Below, piece after piece: positions 1 through 8,222 of a stretch of 59,513 bases of DNA. A model generated the notes under the pieces. The model had not been told where the DNA came from, did no database searches, and worked only from the letters and a program-made list of their open reading frames with translations. The stretch lies in assembly GCA_964388035.1 (NCBI GenBank), contig CAYLZE010000020.1:1-59513 (forward strand), read 5' to 3'. Both the position numbers and the translations under genes were made by a program. Numbering within the stretch: position 1 is the stretch's first letter; each line of letters begins with the position of its first letter. The stretch is from an uncultured archaeon. Its GTDB lineage: Archaea; Asgardarchaeota; Lokiarchaeia; Sigyniarchaeales; SOKP01.

Positions 1-1877
1 ATAGCTTTTAAAATCCTTCTCATTATTTTTCCACTTCGTGTTTTTGGCAGCTCATCTGCAAATTGTACCACATCTGGTTGAAAAACGGGACCAATTTCTG
101 ATCTAACGTGAAGGATGATCTCTTTTCGGAGAGCTTCAGACTTCTCCACTCCTTGAATCAATGTTACGAAGGCCCAAATGGCATTTCCCTTGATTGGATG
201 AGGAAATGGTGCAACGGCGGCTTCAGCAACCTTTGGATGACTTACTATAGCAGATTCCACTTCCATTGTTCCGATTCTATGCCCCGAAACTTTTATCACA
301 TCATCAAGACGTCCAAGAATCCAGAAATAACCATCCTTATCTTTTCGGGCCCCATCTCCAGTATAATAATGATTTGGATATTTGGCTAAATATGTCGACT
401 TAAATCGCTCGGTATCCCCCCATACATCTCTTAACATGCCGGGCCAAGGCTGTGCCATGCAGAAATATCCCCCCTCATCTGGTTCCGTAACTACTTGTCC
501 CTCCATGTCAAAAATGACAGGCTTTATTCCTAAGAAGGGTAAGCAGCAAGAACCTGGTTTAGTTGGGGTTGCAGTAGCAATTGGGGTCATAATAAACCCT
601 CCAGTTTCTGTTTGCCAGTATGTATCCACAATAGGACATTTTTCTTTTCCAACCACTCTATGATACCACGTCCATGCTTCGGGATTTATGGGCTCTCCCA
701 CGGTTCCTAATACTTTAAGGCTAGATAGATCGTGCTTCTTTACCGGTTCCTCTCCATATCTCATTAAAGCCCGAATTGCGGTAGGGGCCGTATAAAAATG
801 AGTTACTTTATGACGCTCCACGATATCCCAAAATCGATCTACATCGGGATAAGTCGGAACTCCTTCGAACATTAAAGTAGTTGCACCATTGGCTAATGGC
901 CCATATACGATATAAGAATGCCCCGTAATCCATCCAATATCTGCGGTACAATACCAGATATCACCTTCTTTATAATTAAAAACTACTTCATGGGTATATG
1001 AAGTATATAAAATATATCCCGCGGTAGTGTGTTTTACTCCTTTTGGCTTTCCGGTAGTTCCCGATGTATATAAGATAAATAAGGTATCTTCTGAATCCAT
1101 TTCTTCACATTCACATTCTTCGCTCATTCCATCAATAAGGTCATTATACCAAATATCTTTGCTGGTATGAGGGATATCTCTTCCTGAGCGCTTAACAACG
1201 ATAACATGCTCGATAGTTGGAACTTCATCGATAATTTCAACCGCATCAGACATTTTAGGATAAAATTTCCCCGCACGCACGGTTTCATCGCTTGTAAATA
1301 ATAATCTAGAATCAGAATCATAAATTCTATCTTTAACAGCTTCTTTTGAAAATCCCCCGAAAACGATCGAATGAATTACTCCGATTCTTGCACATGCCAA
1401 CATTATAATTGCCAACTCAGGAATCATCGGTAGCCATATAGTCACACGATCTCCCTTTTTGAGCCCCAAGCTTTTCATTCCATTAGAGACTTTAGATACT
1501 TCTTTCTTTAATTCATTAAAGGAAAATTTTCTAATTTCACCGGGTGCATCCGCTTCCCATATGATGGCTGTCTTTTCTCCTTTTCCCGCTTCTACGTGTC
1601 TATCAACGCAATTGTAGCAAGCATTTAGTTTTCCTCCAACGAACCATTTCCCCGGAAAAAGGTCGGTCTTTTCCCATACTTTTTTAAATGGCTTAAACCA
1701 GCTAATGGATTGGGCCTGTTCTTTCCAGAATCCCTGCATATCGTCGATGCTTTTCTTATAGAGCTCTTTATATTGTTTAAAAGACATCCCCGTTTTGGCA
1801 TATTGAGGATTTAATTTTTGGGGTTCAAAAATCCGATCCTCTGTCAATATGGATTCCATTCTTTCTTCTTTTGACAT
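1..1877 (-). CDS. acs: AMP-forming acetyl-CoA synthetase (3' end runs off the window; not in the ORF track)
   Basis: Manual translation from ATG at 1877: MSKEERMESILTEDRIFEP...; contains YTSGTTGKPKG, DTYWQTETGG and the C-terminal LPKTRSGKIMRRILKA with the acetylatable Lys at nt 27-29. Confidence 0.95.
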   Translation of the reverse strand, partial: MSKEERMESILTEDRIFEPQKLNPQYAKTGMSFKQYKELYKKSIDDMQGFWKEQAQSISWFKPFKKVWEKTDLFPGKWFVGGKLNACYNCVDRHVEAGKGEKTAIIWEADAPGEIRKFSFNELKKEVSKVSNGMKSLGLKKGDRVTIWLPMIPELAIIMLACARIGVIHSIVFGGFSKEAVKDRIYDSDSRLLFTSDETVRAGKFYPKMSDAVEIIDEVPTIEHVIVVKRSGRDIPHTSKDIWYNDLIDGMSEECECEEMDSEDTLFILYTSGTTGKPKGVKHTTAGYILYTSYTHEVVFNYKEGDIWYCTADIGWITGHSYIVYGPLANGATTLMFEGVPTYPDVDRFWDIVERHKVTHFYTAPTAIRALMRYGEEPVKKHDLSSLKVLGTVGEPINPEAWTWYHRVVGKEKCPIVDTYWQTETGGFIMTPIATATPTKPGSCCLPFLGIKPVIFDMEGQVVTEPDEGGYFCMAQPWPGMLRDVWGDTERFKSTYLAKYPNHYYTGDGARKDKDGYFWILGRLDDVIKVSGHRIGTMEVESAIVSHPKVAEAAVAPFPHPIKGNAIWAFVTLIQGVEKSEALRKEIILHVRSEIGPVFQPDVVQFADELPKTRSGKIMRRILKA

Positions 1878-2144
1878 TATCTTTCACACTTTTGTTGAAT
1901 ATTGTTAGATATTTTAGTGTAATTCACAATTTGTTAAATAGAATCAAATCATTAAAGATTTTGTATTTTTCTCATCAAATAAAAATTTTTTGCTTTTTTA
2001 AAAAGCAAGATTTTCCGTTTAAAATAAATAAAATCATTAAAGATTTTAAAGCTAATATTTTTAAATTATTACCAACATTTAAATTGATATTGAACAAATT
2101 AAGACATTAAGGCACAATTTTCACCAAATTAAAAATTTAAAATT

Positions 2145-4073
2145 ATGAGCCCAAAAATGGAACGCATGGATCTATTAGATGAGGACTGGAGAAATAAATG
2201 GAAAGATAAGGAGATTACCGCAGAAGAAGCTATCAAGAAAATTATTCCCGGAAATCGCGTTTTTATTCACACGGGATGTTCTGAGCCACAAGCGTTGACA
2301 AATGAGTTAATTCGACAAGCGCCTTATCTATATGATATAGAAATAATTCATTTTTTAACAATATGGCCAACAAAATATTTTAAAAAGAATAAATCTGAAG
2401 ACCTCTTTCGACATAATGCATTATTCATTGGAGACACCTTGCGAGAAGCCATCAATAGGGGTCAAGCAGATTATACGCCCATCCATGCAAGTGAGATACC
2501 TCAGTTATTCATTTCTGGGCGTAGATATATCGATATTGCTTTGATTCAGGTCACTCCTCCCGATAGATATGGATTCTGTTCTTTCGGAATTAATGTGGAT
2601 GTAGCCAAGCCCATTGCCCAATCTGCATATCTAACTATCGCAGAGATTAACCCTCACATGCCAAGGACTTTAGGCAATAGTTTTATTCACATGAAAGAAA
2701 TTGATTATTTCGTTTATAATGACACCCCTTTATTGGAATATACTTTTAAAAATGAAGAGCCTGAAGATGTTATCGAAAGAATCGGAATGAATGTCGCTAA
2801 TTTGATTCCAAATAAATCAACAATCCACATTGGCTTTGGAAATTTACCCAATGCTTGTTTAAATTATTTAACCAACAAAAAAGATTTAGGAATGCATAGT
2901 CATTTTATTACAGAAAATATCATCCCGTTAATTGAAAAAACAGTATTGACTTGCCGAAAAAAGAATTTCCATCCCGAGAAAATCATAACAAGTTTTTGTT
3001 TAGGAACGAAGAAATTGTATGATTTTATCGATAATAACCCGTATATCGAATTTTACCCTTCAGATTACGTGTGCAATCCCAGATATATTGGGATGAATAA
3101 GAACATGATTTCAATGGTTCAAGGAATTCAGGTGGATCTTACGGGGCAAGTTAATGCATCAAGTAGGGGATATAACTTTTATTCTGGTATTGGAGATAGC
3201 GTTGATTTTATTAGAGGAGCGTCTTACTCAAAAGGAGGAAAACCCATAATTCTTCTCCCTTCTACTAGAAAAAACGGGACAGAATCTTCCATAGTTTCGC
3301 ATTTAGACGAGGGAGCCGGGGTAGTTTTTACCCGGGCAGATATACATTATGTTGTGACTGAATGGGGTGTCGCATACTTGCACGGTCGAACCATTCGGGA
3401 TCGCGTGATCGAGTTAATTTGCATTGCCCATCCTAAATTTCGTACCCAATTGTTGGAAGAAGCAAAAGAATTAAATTACATCTATAGGGATCAGATGCTT
3501 GCAAGTGATGAAGAAGGTGCGATTTGTGTCTACCCAAGACAATATGAAACCGTCTATAAGACAAAAGATAATACAAAAGTCATAATAAGACCCGTGAAAA
3601 CAACGGATGAGCCACTTTTAAGAGAATTATATTATTCTTTAGACGAAAAAGATCGGTATTTACGATTTTTCGAAGTGAAAAAAGAGTTCCGACACGCTAA
3701 AACCCAAAAAGAAGTGAATATAGATTATGAACAAATCTTTTCTTTAGGGGCATTTGTTGGGGATGTTTCTGATCCAGAAATGATTGGAAATGCTTCTTAT
3801 CATTATAATCCCAATAATAACATGGCAGAATTTGATTTTATTGTAAAAAGAGATTGGAGAGGGAAGGGAATTGGCGCCTATTTATATCATGCCTTAATAA
3901 TAATCGCTAAAGAGAAGGGAATAAAGGGTTTTTATGGAAATATTCATATTCAAAATAGAAAAACTGTGAGAATTATCAAAACAGGTGGTTATACCAAAAT
4001 CACACCACCAGAGTTAGGAGATAAAGAGTTATTTTATCAAGTTGTGTTTGATAAAGAAAATTCCTTTGACTAG
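2145..4073 (+). CDS. Acetyl-CoA hydrolase/CoA-transferase-like domain fused to a C-terminal Pat-type GNAT acetyltransferase
   Basis: N-term family I CoA-transferase motifs (PPDRYGFCSFG, EINPHMPRTLG, VDLTGQVN, VVTEWGVAYLHG); C-term GNAT (VIIRPV...D...YLRFF, AEF, WRGKGIG). Confidence 0.9.
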   Translation: MSPKMERMDLLDEDWRNKWKDKEITAEEAIKKIIPGNRVFIHTGCSEPQALTNELIRQAPYLYDIEIIHFLTIWPTKYFKKNKSEDLFRHNALFIGDTLREAINRGQADYTPIHASEIPQLFISGRRYIDIALIQVTPPDRYGFCSFGINVDVAKPIAQSAYLTIAEINPHMPRTLGNSFIHMKEIDYFVYNDTPLLEYTFKNEEPEDVIERIGMNVANLIPNKSTIHIGFGNLPNACLNYLTNKKDLGMHSHFITENIIPLIEKTVLTCRKKNFHPEKIITSFCLGTKKLYDFIDNNPYIEFYPSDYVCNPRYIGMNKNMISMVQGIQVDLTGQVNASSRGYNFYSGIGDSVDFIRGASYSKGGKPIILLPSTRKNGTESSIVSHLDEGAGVVFTRADIHYVVTEWGVAYLHGRTIRDRVIELICIAHPKFRTQLLEEAKELNYIYRDQMLASDEEGAICVYPRQYETVYKTKDNTKVIIRPVKTTDEPLLRELYYSLDEKDRYLRFFEVKKEFRHAKTQKEVNIDYEQIFSLGAFVGDVSDPEMIGNASYHYNPNNNMAEFDFIVKRDWRGKGIGAYLYHALIIIAKEKGIKGFYGNIHIQNRKTVRIIKTGGYTKITPPELGDKELFYQVVFDKENSFD

Positions 4074-4184: not shown

Positions 4185-4985
4185 ATGAAATATATATATA
4201 CCGATTACCACGTGCATACCAAATGGAGCCATGATATTAAAGAAAACGGCCCAATATTTGAGGAATATGCATTAGCTTCCCAAGAAAATGCAATAAACAT
4301 CTGTTTTCTTGATCATTATGAAGTCTTTTATGTTAAAAATGATAAAACCTATCCATTTTATGGGGGAAAAGACAAGGTAATCGAATATCTTGCCGAATTA
4401 GATAAGGTTAAAGAAAATCACGATCATTTATTGAGCGGACTCGAAGTCGATTATTATGAAGAGATGGAAGAAGAGATTGCAGAGTTTCTTGATGATTTTG
4501 AAAAAGAATTTGATTTTATCGCAGGGACTGTCCATGAAACAGAGTATGGCTATCCCTTTACAACAAGAGAAAAGCTTATTCAGCTTCTTAATGAAAAGAA
4601 CCAAGAAGAGATAATCGAAAAATTTTTTAGATTATCAAGGAAAATGATTGATTCTGGTCTATTTAAAAATATTTGCCACATTGATACTATTTTTCGTTAT
4701 ATTAATGAAAATGATATCAAGCCTTTCAAGAACATTGAAGAATATGATGATGATATTTTAGAATTGGGAAGAGCGTGTATAGGCAATAACATTCAAATAG
4801 AATATAATATTTCCGGGATTCGACATCCTATTAAGAGACCTTTTCCCTCTAAGTCCATGGCATTAAGATTGAAGGGAGAAGGGGCCAAGTTTTTTATCGG
4901 TTCAGATTCTCATTCCATTGAAGTATTTCAAGCTAGTGTTCCTTTAGTAATAGAAGCCTTTAATACATTTAACCATGATAAATAA
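4185..4985 (+). CDS. PHP-family phosphoesterase (histidinol-phosphatase-like)
   Basis: DYHVHT, DH, GLEVD, CHID, GSDSH metal-binding motifs. Confidence 0.85.
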   Translation: MKYIYTDYHVHTKWSHDIKENGPIFEEYALASQENAINICFLDHYEVFYVKNDKTYPFYGGKDKVIEYLAELDKVKENHDHLLSGLEVDYYEEMEEEIAEFLDDFEKEFDFIAGTVHETEYGYPFTTREKLIQLLNEKNQEEIIEKFFRLSRKMIDSGLFKNICHIDTIFRYINENDIKPFKNIEEYDDDILELGRACIGNNIQIEYNISGIRHPIKRPFPSKSMALRLKGEGAKFFIGSDSHSIEVFQASVPLVIEAFNTFNHDK

Positions 4986-4999
4986 TTAAGAAAGGTTTT

Positions 5000-5710
5000 T
5001 TGCGCATCATGAGATTCATAGATAGAGTGAAAGACTGGGATAAAAAAGAAGCTATTAAATATAACGGATTTGGAGGGAAGATAGGAACGGGATTGTTTAA
5101 ATTCTTTTCTTTTTTTGGAAGAGAAACACTCTGGTTTTTATTAATTGCTTATTTTATTTTAATTTGGTATGATTCTGCCTTTTTAATATATATAGGGACT
5201 ACATTCATGAATGGTTTATTCTTAATCTTGCCCATCAAACAGCATTTTAATAGAGCACGTCCTTTTGAAGAAATTGAAGAAATTAGGGTATTAGAACGTC
5301 GCCCGACCTCGAAAAGCTTCCCTTCGTGGCATTCATATAATGTCGTTTCTCAAGCGTTAATTCTTGGAACATTATTGCATTCTATCTGGTTAGGATTCCT
5401 TCTCATGGTTTTTGCCACGATTGTAGCTTTTTCAAGAGTTCAATTAGGTGTCCATTATCCCAGCGATGTTATTGTCGGGGGTTTATTGGGAATTGTTGGT
5501 TTTATTCTAACCATTTATATCATGAATCCCATCTTTTCATGGCTTATTGGTTTATTAGAAAAAGCGATTTCTCTCGAAATCTTTAAACAACAATTTGATC
5601 CTTTATTATTTACGAATCCTTATTATACGATTTTATGCATCGCAGTCTTCACAATTATTATTCTCTCTTATTTTAACAAAAGAATAATGAAGTGGATCTT
5701 TAAAAAATAG
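5000..5710 (+). CDS. PAP2-family membrane phosphatase (alternative ATG start at 5009)
   Basis: K..F.RARP, SFPSWH, SRVQLGVHYPSDV motifs with TM helices. Confidence 0.9.
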   Translation: MRIMRFIDRVKDWDKKEAIKYNGFGGKIGTGLFKFFSFFGRETLWFLLIAYFILIWYDSAFLIYIGTTFMNGLFLILPIKQHFNRARPFEEIEEIRVLERRPTSKSFPSWHSYNVVSQALILGTLLHSIWLGFLLMVFATIVAFSRVQLGVHYPSDVIVGGLLGIVGFILTIYIMNPIFSWLIGLLEKAISLEIFKQQFDPLLFTNPYYTILCIAVFTIIILSYFNKRIMKWIFKK

Positions 5711-5737
5711 TTGTTCAAATTTAGAAAATATTTATTC

Positions 5738-6979
5738 CTATAGATTTAATCTTCTCTTTTTATCGAATAAATCTTTTAATTCATCCAAAACCTGAGCTCT
5801 GACATTTTCTTCCTTTTTTTCTGGTAAAAAGCGAGGTTGTTCAATCTCTAAGGGCATCCCTCCCGATGCTAAGGAAGAAATAGCCCCGCTTTCTATTGCT
5901 TTAAGTCTATGTTCAATTAATTCCAATTGCTTTGTAAGGCTTTCTGATAATCTTATTACCATGTTAATTGTTTGCTCCATGATTTTTCCAAGTCCATCAA
6001 TCTTTTTTATGGTGGGATCGGTCAAGGAATAGTGAGAATTTATCACTTCTTTTAATAATTTTGAAAATGATGGTTCTTTTGTAAGAACAGTGAAGATGGA
6101 AGTGGGATAAATCTCATAATCAAAGTTATATACTTTTTTATTAAAAACTTCCAATAAATTATCCTTTAAAAATTCGATATTGAGTTGTATTTTCGGGTCA
6201 GATTTAAGCTCAGGATCCACTTTATGAGCAAATATAAGAAAATACGGATTTTCTTCTAATATGATCAAGAGATCTAGGATCTTATCAAAATAATCCAGAG
6301 ATTCATCAAATCTCTCAGAATCCTGCACATCAATAACGTAAATAAATAGATCAATATCAATAAAATAACTTTCAGGAGCATCAAGATATCCCTCTCTATA
6401 CTTCTTTTGTCCTCCCAAATCCCAGATTATTAATTCAAGATTTCCCGGTCGCGCGCTCTCGACATCTTGATTGCGTGTTTTTATGGTTCTACGCACGACT
6501 CCCTTCGTTGGCTTTAATGAAGCTAAATCATCAATTCCTAATTTTCCTCCAAAACTAGAGATAACTGCGGTCTTTCCAGCATTATCTAATCCTGCTACAA
6601 CCACCTTCTGGTTTTTATCCTCAAATTCTGAGGGCTCATTTTTAATTGATGCGATGAGGGAGCTAATGGTGATTGCTTTTTTAACATTAAATTCTAAATC
6701 AGGAAAATTCTGCTTTAATGTTGTGATTTTCTCTCTTAAGTTTTCATCACTTTTAAAAATTTCATTGAAGGGATCGTTTTTATTCAATTTAGATGCATCA
6801 GAAATCGTAGTAGCTTTTAAAATATCTTTAATTATTTTAAGTTCCGAAGTACCCATGAATTTAAAAGAATCAATCGGCAGTTCTAATATATCGGTAACGG
6901 ATTTTGGTTCCTTTTTAAGTTGTTGATAATCTATATATTTTGAAATAATTTTAACTAAGTATTGGAGTTCCGAACTCAT
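5738..6979 (-). CDS. Arf/Rag-like small GTPase with N-terminal extension and C-terminal coiled coil
   Basis: G1 GLDNAGKT, G2 PTKG, G3 WDLGGQ, G4 HKVD, G5 TSIF. Confidence 0.85.
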   Translation of the reverse strand: MSSELQYLVKIISKYIDYQQLKKEPKSVTDILELPIDSFKFMGTSELKIIKDILKATTISDASKLNKNDPFNEIFKSDENLREKITTLKQNFPDLEFNVKKAITISSLIASIKNEPSEFEDKNQKVVVAGLDNAGKTAVISSFGGKLGIDDLASLKPTKGVVRRTIKTRNQDVESARPGNLELIIWDLGGQKKYREGYLDAPESYFIDIDLFIYVIDVQDSERFDESLDYFDKILDLLIILEENPYFLIFAHKVDPELKSDPKIQLNIEFLKDNLLEVFNKKVYNFDYEIYPTSIFTVLTKEPSFSKLLKEVINSHYSLTDPTIKKIDGLGKIMEQTINMVIRLSESLTKQLELIEHRLKAIESGAISSLASGGMPLEIEQPRFLPEKKEENVRAQVLDELKDLFDKKRRLNL

Positions 6980-7231
6980 GATTTATATTAACCTATGATC
7001 GTTTAAATCGTTATATAATTTTTTTCATTGGGTTGTTGGATTTATAAAAAACCCTTTTTCTTTCGAGGAAATTTTAGTGAATAAGAAAGAAAAATCTAAT
7101 TGTAACTTACTGCTCGTTATTAATTTTTAATTTGCTAGTTATAAATATATAATTATCCATGATTGAATATAAACCGAATTCAATAAACCCATAATCTCCT
7201 TTTAATCATGTTATCTGAAATCTGGGGAACA

Positions 7232-7239
7232 TTTATATA
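7232..7239 (+). promoter_or_regulatory. Candidate TATA box of tfb (TTTATATA) preceded by purine-rich BRE-like GGGGAAC
   Basis: Archaeal consensus match about 70 nt upstream of the ATG; AT-rich background weakens it. Confidence 0.3.
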
Positions 7240-7304
7240 GGTATACAGCTATTATTAAACAGAGAAAAAAAACTTCCAATAACAATATTTTTCTATTAGG
7301 GTAC

Positions 7305-8222
7305 ATGCCATCTTCTAAAACTTATAAGGATGATGAATTCCTCGACCTTAAAAATCAACCTTGTTGTGATGCTCCCAAAATCAGTAAAGAAGATGGATTT
7401 TATACTTGTTTAAATTGTGGATTTGTTTATTCTAGAATTTTAGATAATAGTCCTTCGAGAGCCTTTACTCAAGAAGAAATTCAGAAAAGAAAAAGTAATG
7501 AACGGGTATATAGCCCTATAGGTCCAAGAACCATTATTAGAGGTTCTCGAGATGCCCGAGGAACTCTTTTAAGTCCGAAATATAAGTCAAAATTTAATCG
7601 GTTAGCAAAAATTCATCGATCTTTGACCACGAGTTATGAAAGAAATTTATGGATTGCACTTCCTAATCTACAAAGATTACAAAAGAAATTAGGTATTCCG
7701 GAGACAGTTGCGGAAGATGCTTTAAGGATTTACACCCAAACAGTCAAGAAAAAATTGACAATGGGAAGAAGTATCGATACATTATTAGCAGCTTCTATTT
7801 TTTGCGCGCTAAGAGTACATGGAATACCACGTACCATAGAAGAAATTACCAACGCAGCACAAATTCCTAAAAAAAAAGTGATCAAAAGCTATAGATTAAT
7901 TCTTTATGATGTTCTGCCCAATTTGAATTTAAAGGTTCAACATTTCAGTGCAAAACGATATGTTGACAAATTTAATGATGATTTAAAGCTCTCCATGAAA
8001 TGTAGAAATATAGCTGTAAAACTTATTGAATGTGCTCAAGTTTGCGGTTTTAATTCCGCCGGTAAGGATCCAAAGGGTATTGCGGCGGCCGCCATCTATA
8101 TTGGATGTAAAATGTGTGATGAAACAAGAACCCAAAAAGAAATTTCTTCGCTCGCTAACGTCACGGAAGTGACTTTGAGGATGAGGGTAAAAGATCTTCA
8201 AAAATATGTAGTTAAATTATGA
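7305..8222 (+). CDS. tfb: Transcription initiation factor IIB (TFB paralog)
   Basis: Zn ribbon (CC...CLNCG), ERNL, two cyclin repeats (GRSIDTLLAASIF; GKDPKGIAAAAIY; RTQKEISSLANVTEVTLRMR). Confidence 0.92.
   Translation: MPSSKTYKDDEFLDLKNQPCCDAPKISKEDGFYTCLNCGFVYSRILDNSPSRAFTQEEIQKRKSNERVYSPIGPRTIIRGSRDARGTLLSPKYKSKFNRLAKIHRSLTTSYERNLWIALPNLQRLQKKLGIPETVAEDALRIYTQTVKKKLTMGRSIDTLLAASIFCALRVHGIPRTIEEITNAAQIPKKKVIKSYRLILYDVLPNLNLKVQHFSAKRYVDKFNDDLKLSMKCRNIAVKLIECAQVCGFNSAGKDPKGIAAAAIYIGCKMCDETRTQKEISSLANVTEVTLRMRVKDLQKYVVKL

Follow-up and report, generated by a model that had tools for sequence, protein, structure and literature searches.

A fusion protein that joins a class I coenzyme A (CoA) transferase fold, with its catalytic residues replaced, to a Pat-type GNAT acetyltransferase is encoded head-to-head with acs, the gene for AMP-forming acetyl-CoA synthetase, in an uncultured Asgard archaeon, and is probably an undescribed kind of regulatory module for shutting off acetate activation. 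Both genes lie at the start of contig CAYLZE010000020.1 (assembly GCA_964388035.1; Lokiarchaeia, Sigyniarchaeales, SOKP01), of which positions 1 to 59,513 of the forward strand were analysed; this whole stretch of 59,513 nucleotides is called the window below. An earlier note, made from the letters of the window, had proposed that a dead CoA-transferase fold serves here as the acyl-CoA sensor of an acetyltransferase acting on Acs. The present analysis newly brings out intact paralogues, a link to acs that is probably older than the loss of the catalytic centre, GNAT-only and histone deacetylase (HDAC) variants, co-loss of the two genes and recurrent loss of the centre.

In the mechanism that we favour, by a modest degree of confidence and on the strength of conserved residues and analogy, a Pat-like enzyme would inactivate Acs at Lys617, a non-catalytic CoA-transferase fold would replace the dead nucleoside diphosphate (NDP)-forming ligase domain of Pat, and a sirtuin or HDAC would reverse the modification. 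Lys617 of the head-to-head-encoded Acs would be the most likely target of the GNAT, and its acetylation would switch off ATP-consuming acetate activation until one of the sirtuins or HDACs of the genome removed the acetyl group. Occupancy of the N-terminal domain (N domain), or its oligomerisation, would be coupled to GNAT activity. The features on which this proposal is built are the following.

3-1877, minus strand: acs, AMP-forming acetyl-CoA synthetase, 625 residues visible (NF001208, TIGR02188)
27-47, minus strand: PKTRSGK motif (A10) of Acs, residues 611-617, with the Lys617 codon at 27-29
1878-2144, no strand: AT-rich divergent spacer of 267 bp between the head-to-head acs and fusion genes
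2145-4073, plus strand: fusion gene, CoA-transferase fold followed by Pat-type GNAT, 642 residues (Pfam, AlphaFold2 model)
2184-3482, plus strand: CoA-transferase-fold domain, predicted non-catalytic, residues ~14-446 (phmmer, Foldseek)
2901-2903, plus strand: His253 in place of the catalytic Glu nucleophile (AarC Glu294, RipA Glu249) (HMMER alignment, orthologue clusters)
3072-3074, plus strand: Cys310 in place of the internal oxyanion-hole Asn (AarC Asn347) (cluster alignment)
3195-3200, plus strand: Asp351-Ser352 in place of the Gly-Gln of GGQxDF (HMMER, cluster alignment)
3519-4004, plus strand: Pat-type GNAT with its N-terminal extension, residues ~459-620 (phmmer against PatZ)
3828-3830, plus strand: Glu562, counterpart of the catalytic Glu809 of PatZ (PatZ alignment)
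3858-3875, plus strand: RGKGIG, residues 572-577, acetyl-CoA pyrophosphate-binding P-loop (aligned with PatZ G822-G824)

A CoA-transferase fold with a replaced catalytic centre

The N domain belongs by homology to the class I CoA-transferases (4-hydroxybutyrate/butyryl-CoA:acetate subfamily), with matches to AcetylCoA_hydro (PF02550, residues 25-193, E 1.8e-29) and AcetylCoA_hyd_C (PF13336, residues 287-440, E 3.9e-60) that precede the GNAT match at residues 479-616. Three solved 4-hydroxybutyrate CoA-transferases, 9vag, 3eh7 and 2oas, were used as alignment references and were matched by HMMER at E 2.5e-111 to 7e-97, the phmmer comparison of the N domain with 9vag giving E 2.5e-111. The AlphaFold2 model of the fusion (pLDDT 91.7, pTM 0.89) was aligned by Foldseek to CoA-bound 2oas_A with a TMt of 0.95 and a root-mean-square deviation of 1.6 Å. 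The closest homologues of the whole fusion, at 70-86% identity, are proteins from metagenome-assembled genomes (MAGs) of Promethearchaeota, Lokiarchaeota, Hodarchaeota, Hermodarchaeota and Thorarchaeota, which supports an Asgard source of the DNA.

In the HMMER alignment, DLGMHSHFI of the fusion faces DLG[VI]HTEM of the solved enzymes, and GIGDSVDF (residues 348-355) faces G[FTV]GGQ[LVM]D[FY]. This bears out the earlier note on both motifs, LGMHSHFI starting at residue 248 and placing His253 opposite the Glu of H-T-E. The replacements were followed through 121 orthologue clusters and compared with 96 active-type relatives in which Glu and GGQ are kept. Position 253 is His in 117 clusters, Tyr in 2 and Phe in 2, with the Glu of H-[ST]-E absent; position 310 is Cys in 120 and Ser in 1, as against Asn in 91% of the active-type relatives; and the GxGGQxDF loop is replaced by G[DE][TS], position 351 being Asp or Glu and position 352 Thr or Ser in 121/121 clusters. 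AarC numbering was transferred by an alignment of residues 307-437 to 344-467 (offset 37), together with the Gly388...Phe392 spacing, Phe392 corresponding to Phe355 (PMC4876117). In AarC, Glu294 is the nucleophile, Asn347 forms the internal oxyanion hole and buttresses the Glu, and Gly388 forms the external oxyanion hole (PMC4876117). With all three elements replaced (Glu nucleophile, Asn oxyanion residue and GGQ loop), the N domain is predicted to be non-catalytic and unable to act as a class I CoA-transferase.

The remainder of the domain has been retained. Conservation of at least 85% in the active-type set defines 76 positions; 62 of them persist in 90% or more of the orthologue clusters, and 10 further positions in most of them; only four are fully replaced, and all four lie in the catalytic centre (E253H, N310C, G351D/E and Q352T/S). 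The N domain is not decaying: it is conserved to the same degree as the GNAT half, the mean pairwise identity among orthologues being 0.79 and 0.77, respectively. The term 'catalytically dead', which had been applied to the fusion beforehand, therefore needs to be divided. It describes correctly that all three elements are gone; it misses that the centre, as read from the alignments, is rebuilt with conserved His, Cys and Asp/Glu and is not simply dead.

Could the N domain still be an active CoA-transferase that employs a different nucleophile, the fusion then being a bifunctional enzyme? The fold is intact and Glu257 lies four residues past His253, and a Glu257 in the active site, with measurable transferase activity, was one circumstance under which the earlier note would have been mistaken. 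The position is Asp in 112/121 orthologues (Asn in 8) and likewise Asp in 82/96 active-type relatives, so that Glu257 was rejected as a relocated nucleophile. The oxyanion elements Asn and Gly are also gone, and the TIGR03948 equivalog model for the family scored the protein at 272.8 bits, far under its cut-off of 674.8. A retained transferase activity is thus exceedingly improbable.

Because the other family-conserved positions are kept, the N domain most likely still binds CoA or acyl-CoA. The specific claim that such binding allosterically controls the GNAT, drawn from this conservation and from analogy with known acetyltransferases (PMC8556138), is put forward tentatively, as an attractive possibility that falls somewhat short of being probable.

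A different reading of the same residues is that the centre has been rewired, with Cys310, His253 and Asp/Glu351 forming a new thiol-based site at the acyl-CoA thioester that controls or feeds the GNAT. Such a site may be a sensor based on S-acyl-cysteine or a CoA disulfide, a triad for thioesterase or acyl-transfer chemistry, or a metal site of His, Cys and carboxylate. The replacements are conserved and not scattered (C 120/121, D/E 121/121, T/S 121/121, H 117/121), the remainder of the pocket is kept, and the three original residues of AarC contact each other and the thioester within ~3 Å (PMC4876117); by homology with AarC, His253, Cys310 and Asp351 would take up a similar mutual placement around the thioester. 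On the other side, four orthologue clusters have Tyr or Phe at position 253, and P0123, the nearest representative at the 50%-identity level, has Phe there and Ser for the Cys, which argues against an obligatory triad or metal ligand; other fusion lineages have lost the centre with unrelated residues. A rewired site is accordingly regarded as unlikely, if still worth keeping in sight.

The GNAT half and its presumed target

The second half of the fusion is, as judged from its matches and motifs, a GNAT of the Pat type. Residues 459-616 align without gaps with residues 706-863 of E. coli PatZ (9it0; phmmer E 2.8e-14), and further matches were obtained with SlPatA (4nxy, E 1.4e-9), SsoPat (3f8k, E 4e-7) and MtPat (4orf, E 1.5e-5); all PDB matches of this half below E 1e-3 are protein lysine acetyltransferases. 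The features by which the GNAT had been called Pat-like, namely the RP...Y.RFF start, the Glu of AEF and the RGKGIG loop, were recovered, with IRPV at residue 481, RYLRFF at 504 and AEF at 561-563. Mutagenesis of PatZ has shown that R754, F756, E809 and the P-loop matter (PMC12184503); R754 and F756 correspond to R507 and F509 of the fusion, G822-G824 of the P-loop to G575/G577, and the counterpart of E809, Glu562, is invariant in 43/43 of the fusion and GNAT-only homologues examined. An NDP-forming acyl-CoA synthetase-like module would show as a CoA_binding, ATP-grasp or ligase_CoA Pfam match, and none of these was found in the fusion.

The presumed target is identified with confidence as Acs by NCBIfam models (NF001208, 946.9 bits, cut-off 657; TIGR02188, 920.3 bits, cut-off 725). 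The gene runs past the start of the window and of the contig, ~35 C-terminal residues lying beyond, and encodes the single true Acs of the 5.47-Mb assembly, the second-best match being 31% identical. Retention of the PKTRSGK lysine, pointed out in the earlier note, was verified, and the motif is unchanged across 18/18 Acs orthologues examined. Its lysine, Lys617, is the counterpart of Lys609, the residue of Acs that is acetylated by Pat (PMC12184503).

Linkage of the fusion to acs in Asgard genomes

The head-to-head arrangement of the window, with its gap of 267 bp, was followed in 151 genomes of the phylum, which were sampled for the fusion orthologue and for acs. In the window's family (f1), 13 other genomes have the orthologue on one contig with an acs that is complete or nearly so. 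The two genes are divergent neighbours in 13/13 of these, and one additional genome (G057) has the divergent arrangement with acs cut by the contig end. The gap measures 180-283 bp in 6 of these genomes and 1.5-2.4 kb, with inserted genes, in the other 7. The inserted genes were considered as possible partners of the pair; they form a varied set (TPR, DUF4386, ferredoxin, radical SAM, CAAX protease) and were therefore taken as insertions.

As to co-occurrence, 25 of 26 f1 genomes are concordant for the orthologue and acs. The synthetase gene was found in 20 of the 21 genomes carrying the orthologue, and the 5/5 genomes without the orthologue are also without acs, their best matches being paralogues at 30-31% identity or none. 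The f1 genomes are kin, and these counts do not represent independent events; at least three separate genera are involved.

These data bear on the possibility that the GNAT acetylates a target other than Acs (another acyl-CoA synthetase, another protein or a small molecule) and that adjacency to acs reflects co-regulation in acetate/acetyl-CoA metabolism. The genome encodes 11 other AMP-binding acyl-CoA ligase homologues and two fusion paralogues that are not beside acs, and many substrates are known for Pat enzymes (PMC12184503). Against this stand the joint gain and loss of orthologue and acs in f1 and an adjacency that appears to have been re-formed in family f16, as described below. A target other than Acs is consequently judged very unlikely.

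Linkage to acs extends beyond f1. In family f7, fusions that are 42-45% identical to the window protein are divergent from acs in 18 genomes, the gap holding an MFS transporter gene or a GPR1/FUN34/YaaH acetate-channel gene; in family f16, fusions are convergent with acs in 3 genomes. Those of f7 keep H-T-E, Asn and GGQ, and those of f16 keep Glu, Asn and GGQ. The expectation that loss of the Glu would track with acs synteny was thus contradicted. Since intact-centre fusions of both families are also linked to acs, the link is probably older than the loss of the centre. Further, the Acs of f16 nests in the f1 Acs clade (support value 97), ahead of genus g4, and is 79-80% identical to the window Acs (L023, L024), whereas the f16 fusion falls in a different clade from the f1 orthologue. 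Adjacency between acs and a fusion therefore seems to have been formed more than once, being re-formed in f16, which speaks for a functional connection of Acs with the fusion family, irrespective of catalytic state. The placement of the f16 Acs also suggests horizontal transfer of acs between Asgard families.

In the sister genus g4, the gene divergent from acs encodes a GNAT alone (175-193 residues). This GNAT nests within the rebuilt, that is orthologue, clade of the GNAT tree (support value 99), and its form most likely reflects a later loss of the N domain. A GNAT-only match in G113 was set aside as a truncation by the contig end and not a genuine stand-alone gene. In a g4 genome without acs (G040), a 76-residue frame (L065:3886-4116) that is 44% identical to fusion residues 472-538, the start of the Pat-type GNAT, lies beside a restriction-modification methylase gene and may be a remnant; it was not used as evidence, its neighbourhood being unrelated and without synteny with the G147 locus.

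The g4 form is pertinent to the idea that the N domain serves only as a scaffold, for structure or oligomerisation, the fusion being a constitutive Acs acetyltransferase that is controlled by expression from the shared promoter region. A GNAT-only orthologue beside acs indicates that the GNAT can stand alone, and class I CoA-transferases and Pat enzymes are both oligomers (PMC8556138). A mere scaffold, however, leaves unexplained why 62/76 family-conserved positions are retained and why four catalytic positions carry conserved residues of their own, and this idea appears quite unlikely.

A separate observation concerns acs in genus g7. In two genomes (G138 and G144), the gene (L016:825-2837, minus strand; L020:2804-4846, plus strand) contains 30-nt in-frame insertions with a TAG at codon 7 of 10, located inside strictly conserved motifs: DTYWQ|TETGG is split in both genomes and GEPI|NPEAW in G144 only. 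Elsewhere the genes are open, with 77-80% identity to the window Acs, and each insert folds as a short hairpin. Excision from the RNA, as mini-introns, could account for the insertions; alternatively, these could be pseudogenes.

Several points weigh against the proposed acetylation switch with a non-catalytic sensor domain. Acs is named as the substrate on the basis of gene neighbourhood and analogy. New chemistry, and not simple binding, is hinted at by the conserved replacement with His, Cys and Asp/Glu. The acs-linked fusions of f7 and f16 look catalytically intact, so that the fusion does not have to act by way of a dead sensor domain, and in one lineage, as the GNAT-only form of g4 shows, the N domain can be dispensed with. 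In one f1 genome (G083) the fusion is present and acs was not found, the fusion lying ~1 kb from a contig end. Finally, no deacetylase gene was found in the locus; the genome as a whole encodes four sirtuins and four HDACs.

Paralogues and the wider fusion family

Contig 14 of the window genome carries two tandem fusion paralogues (L012:7930-9834 and L012:9974-11944) that are 48-49% identical to the window fusion, have Glu, Asn and GGQ intact and are not near acs. A gene for a GHKL/HATPase_c protein lies upstream of the pair and an HhH-GPD glycosylase-like gene downstream. One group of the domain tree (support value 100) unites the rebuilt clade, the intact f1 paralogues and f2 sequences. The rebuilt form is therefore placed after a duplication within the order, in which the acs-side copy is the one predicted to have lost its chemistry.

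The architecture, which carries the database name 'acyl-CoA hydrolase/GNAT superfamily N-acetyltransferase', is widespread. At least 81 fusions are present among the best 150 representatives (50% identity), in archaea and bacteria. Glu is lost in 33 of these 81 representatives and all three elements in 22, while all three are kept in 29; among 65 stand-alone representatives the corresponding numbers are 15, 2 and 46. Two representatives (P0153 and P0176) are triple fusions of a dead CoA-transferase, a GNAT and a histone deacetylase, with the eraser at the C-terminus, so that writer and eraser share one chain. A triple fusion of 1012 residues is encoded, at 88% identity, in a Deltaproteobacteria MAG (JAFGIB010000173.1, L053:1197-4235), where it sits 1.6 kb from a CODH/ACS (Wood-Ljungdahl) gene cluster. 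Two other representatives (P0126 and P0133; ~960 residues) have an N-terminal 4Fe-4S ferredoxin-like region before the dead CoA-transferase and the GNAT, and the Myxococcales protein RJO65015.1 is a member of one of these clusters. The repeated loss of chemistry in fusions and the fusion to a deacetylase fit the view that the transferase fold plays a regulatory part in protein acetylation. Thirteen stand-alone clusters (~425 residues; P0204, P0224, P0226, P0230 and others) read H-S-G, with Gly at the nucleophile position and GGQ kept, and may constitute a subfamily of their own whose nucleophile is shifted or different.

Spacer and neighbouring genes

In the spacer between acs and the fusion gene, a 29-nt sequence is directly repeated (1934-1962 and 2019-2047, 86% identical); it has the palindromic core AAATC-N6-GATTT, and a GCTTTTT/AAAAAGC inverted repeat sits between its two copies. 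Two orthologous spacers (L019 and L020) were examined and the direct repeat was found in neither, and for this reason no regulator site is claimed. Downstream of the fusion, at 4185-8222, are genes for a PHP-domain protein, a PAP2 phosphatase, an Arf/Rag-like small GTPase (5738-6979, minus strand) with ~120 additional N-terminal residues, and TFIIB, none of which is kept beside the fusion in relatives.

Comparison with known systems

The nearest parallels are the type I/II Pat enzymes, that is S. enterica Pat, E. coli PatZ (9it0, 9isq) and S. lividans PatA (4nxy, 4u5y), with which the fusion shares a homologous GNAT, the Pat N-terminal extension, the catalytic Glu, the R..F pair and the P-loop. 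In both cases the GNAT is joined to a large enzyme-derived domain with a lost catalytic residue, and the likely substrate is the active-site lysine of Acs; the large domain of Pat itself binds acetyl-CoA and is needed for activity. The regulatory domain of the fusion, in contrast, is a CoA-transferase fold (~430 residues) and not an NDP-forming acyl-CoA synthetase/ATP-grasp module (~700 residues), three catalytic elements have been replaced by conserved residues where one His is lost in Pat, and the fusion is archaeal with its gene divergently paired with acs. Type III Pat enzymes (the cNMP-binding MtPat/MsPat, cNMP being cyclic nucleotide monophosphate, and the ACT-GNAT of Micromonospora) follow the same logic of a ligand-binding domain at the N-terminus, before a Pat-type GNAT, but the regulatory fold and the presumed ligand differ.

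The acsA/acuABC locus of B. subtilis also has an acetyltransferase gene divergent from acs and feedback inactivation of Acs by lysine acetylation, and its HDAC-type eraser AcuC is echoed by the CoA-transferase-GNAT-HDAC triple fusions. AcuA, however, is a stand-alone GNAT of a different subfamily, and the Asgard locus has neither a deacetylase nor an AcuB-like gene. AbfT/Cat2 and RipA (3gk7, 2oas, 3eh7, 9vag, 3qli) share the fold of the N half at 30-41% identity, with most conserved positions retained; with Glu, Asn and GGQ replaced and a GNAT at its C-terminus, the fusion is predicted not to be a functional member of that group. In published classifications, the Pat types recognised are NDP-forming ligase, cNMP, ACT, NADP-binding and tandem-GNAT, and no CoA-transferase module is listed (PMC8556138). 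No study describing a CoA-transferase-GNAT Pat was found in the limited set of literature searched.

Implications

In bacteria, the regulation of Acs through reversible acetylation of a lysine is a textbook example of a metabolic switch; to our knowledge, little is known of such control in archaea. The CoA-transferase module joined to a Pat-type GNAT constitutes a large family in which the centre has been lost repeatedly and some members carry a deacetylase domain. Within Asgard genomes, the acs-linked series comprises an active-looking centre, a rebuilt centre and a deleted domain, which makes the origin of a pseudoenzyme regulator testable. If the centre were indeed rewired, the active (f7 and f16), rebuilt (f1) and lost (g4) forms would be stages in the evolution of an enzyme-derived regulator. 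In conclusion, the acs-linked fusion bears on how the closest archaeal relatives of eukaryotes couple the supply of acetyl-CoA to protein acetylation.

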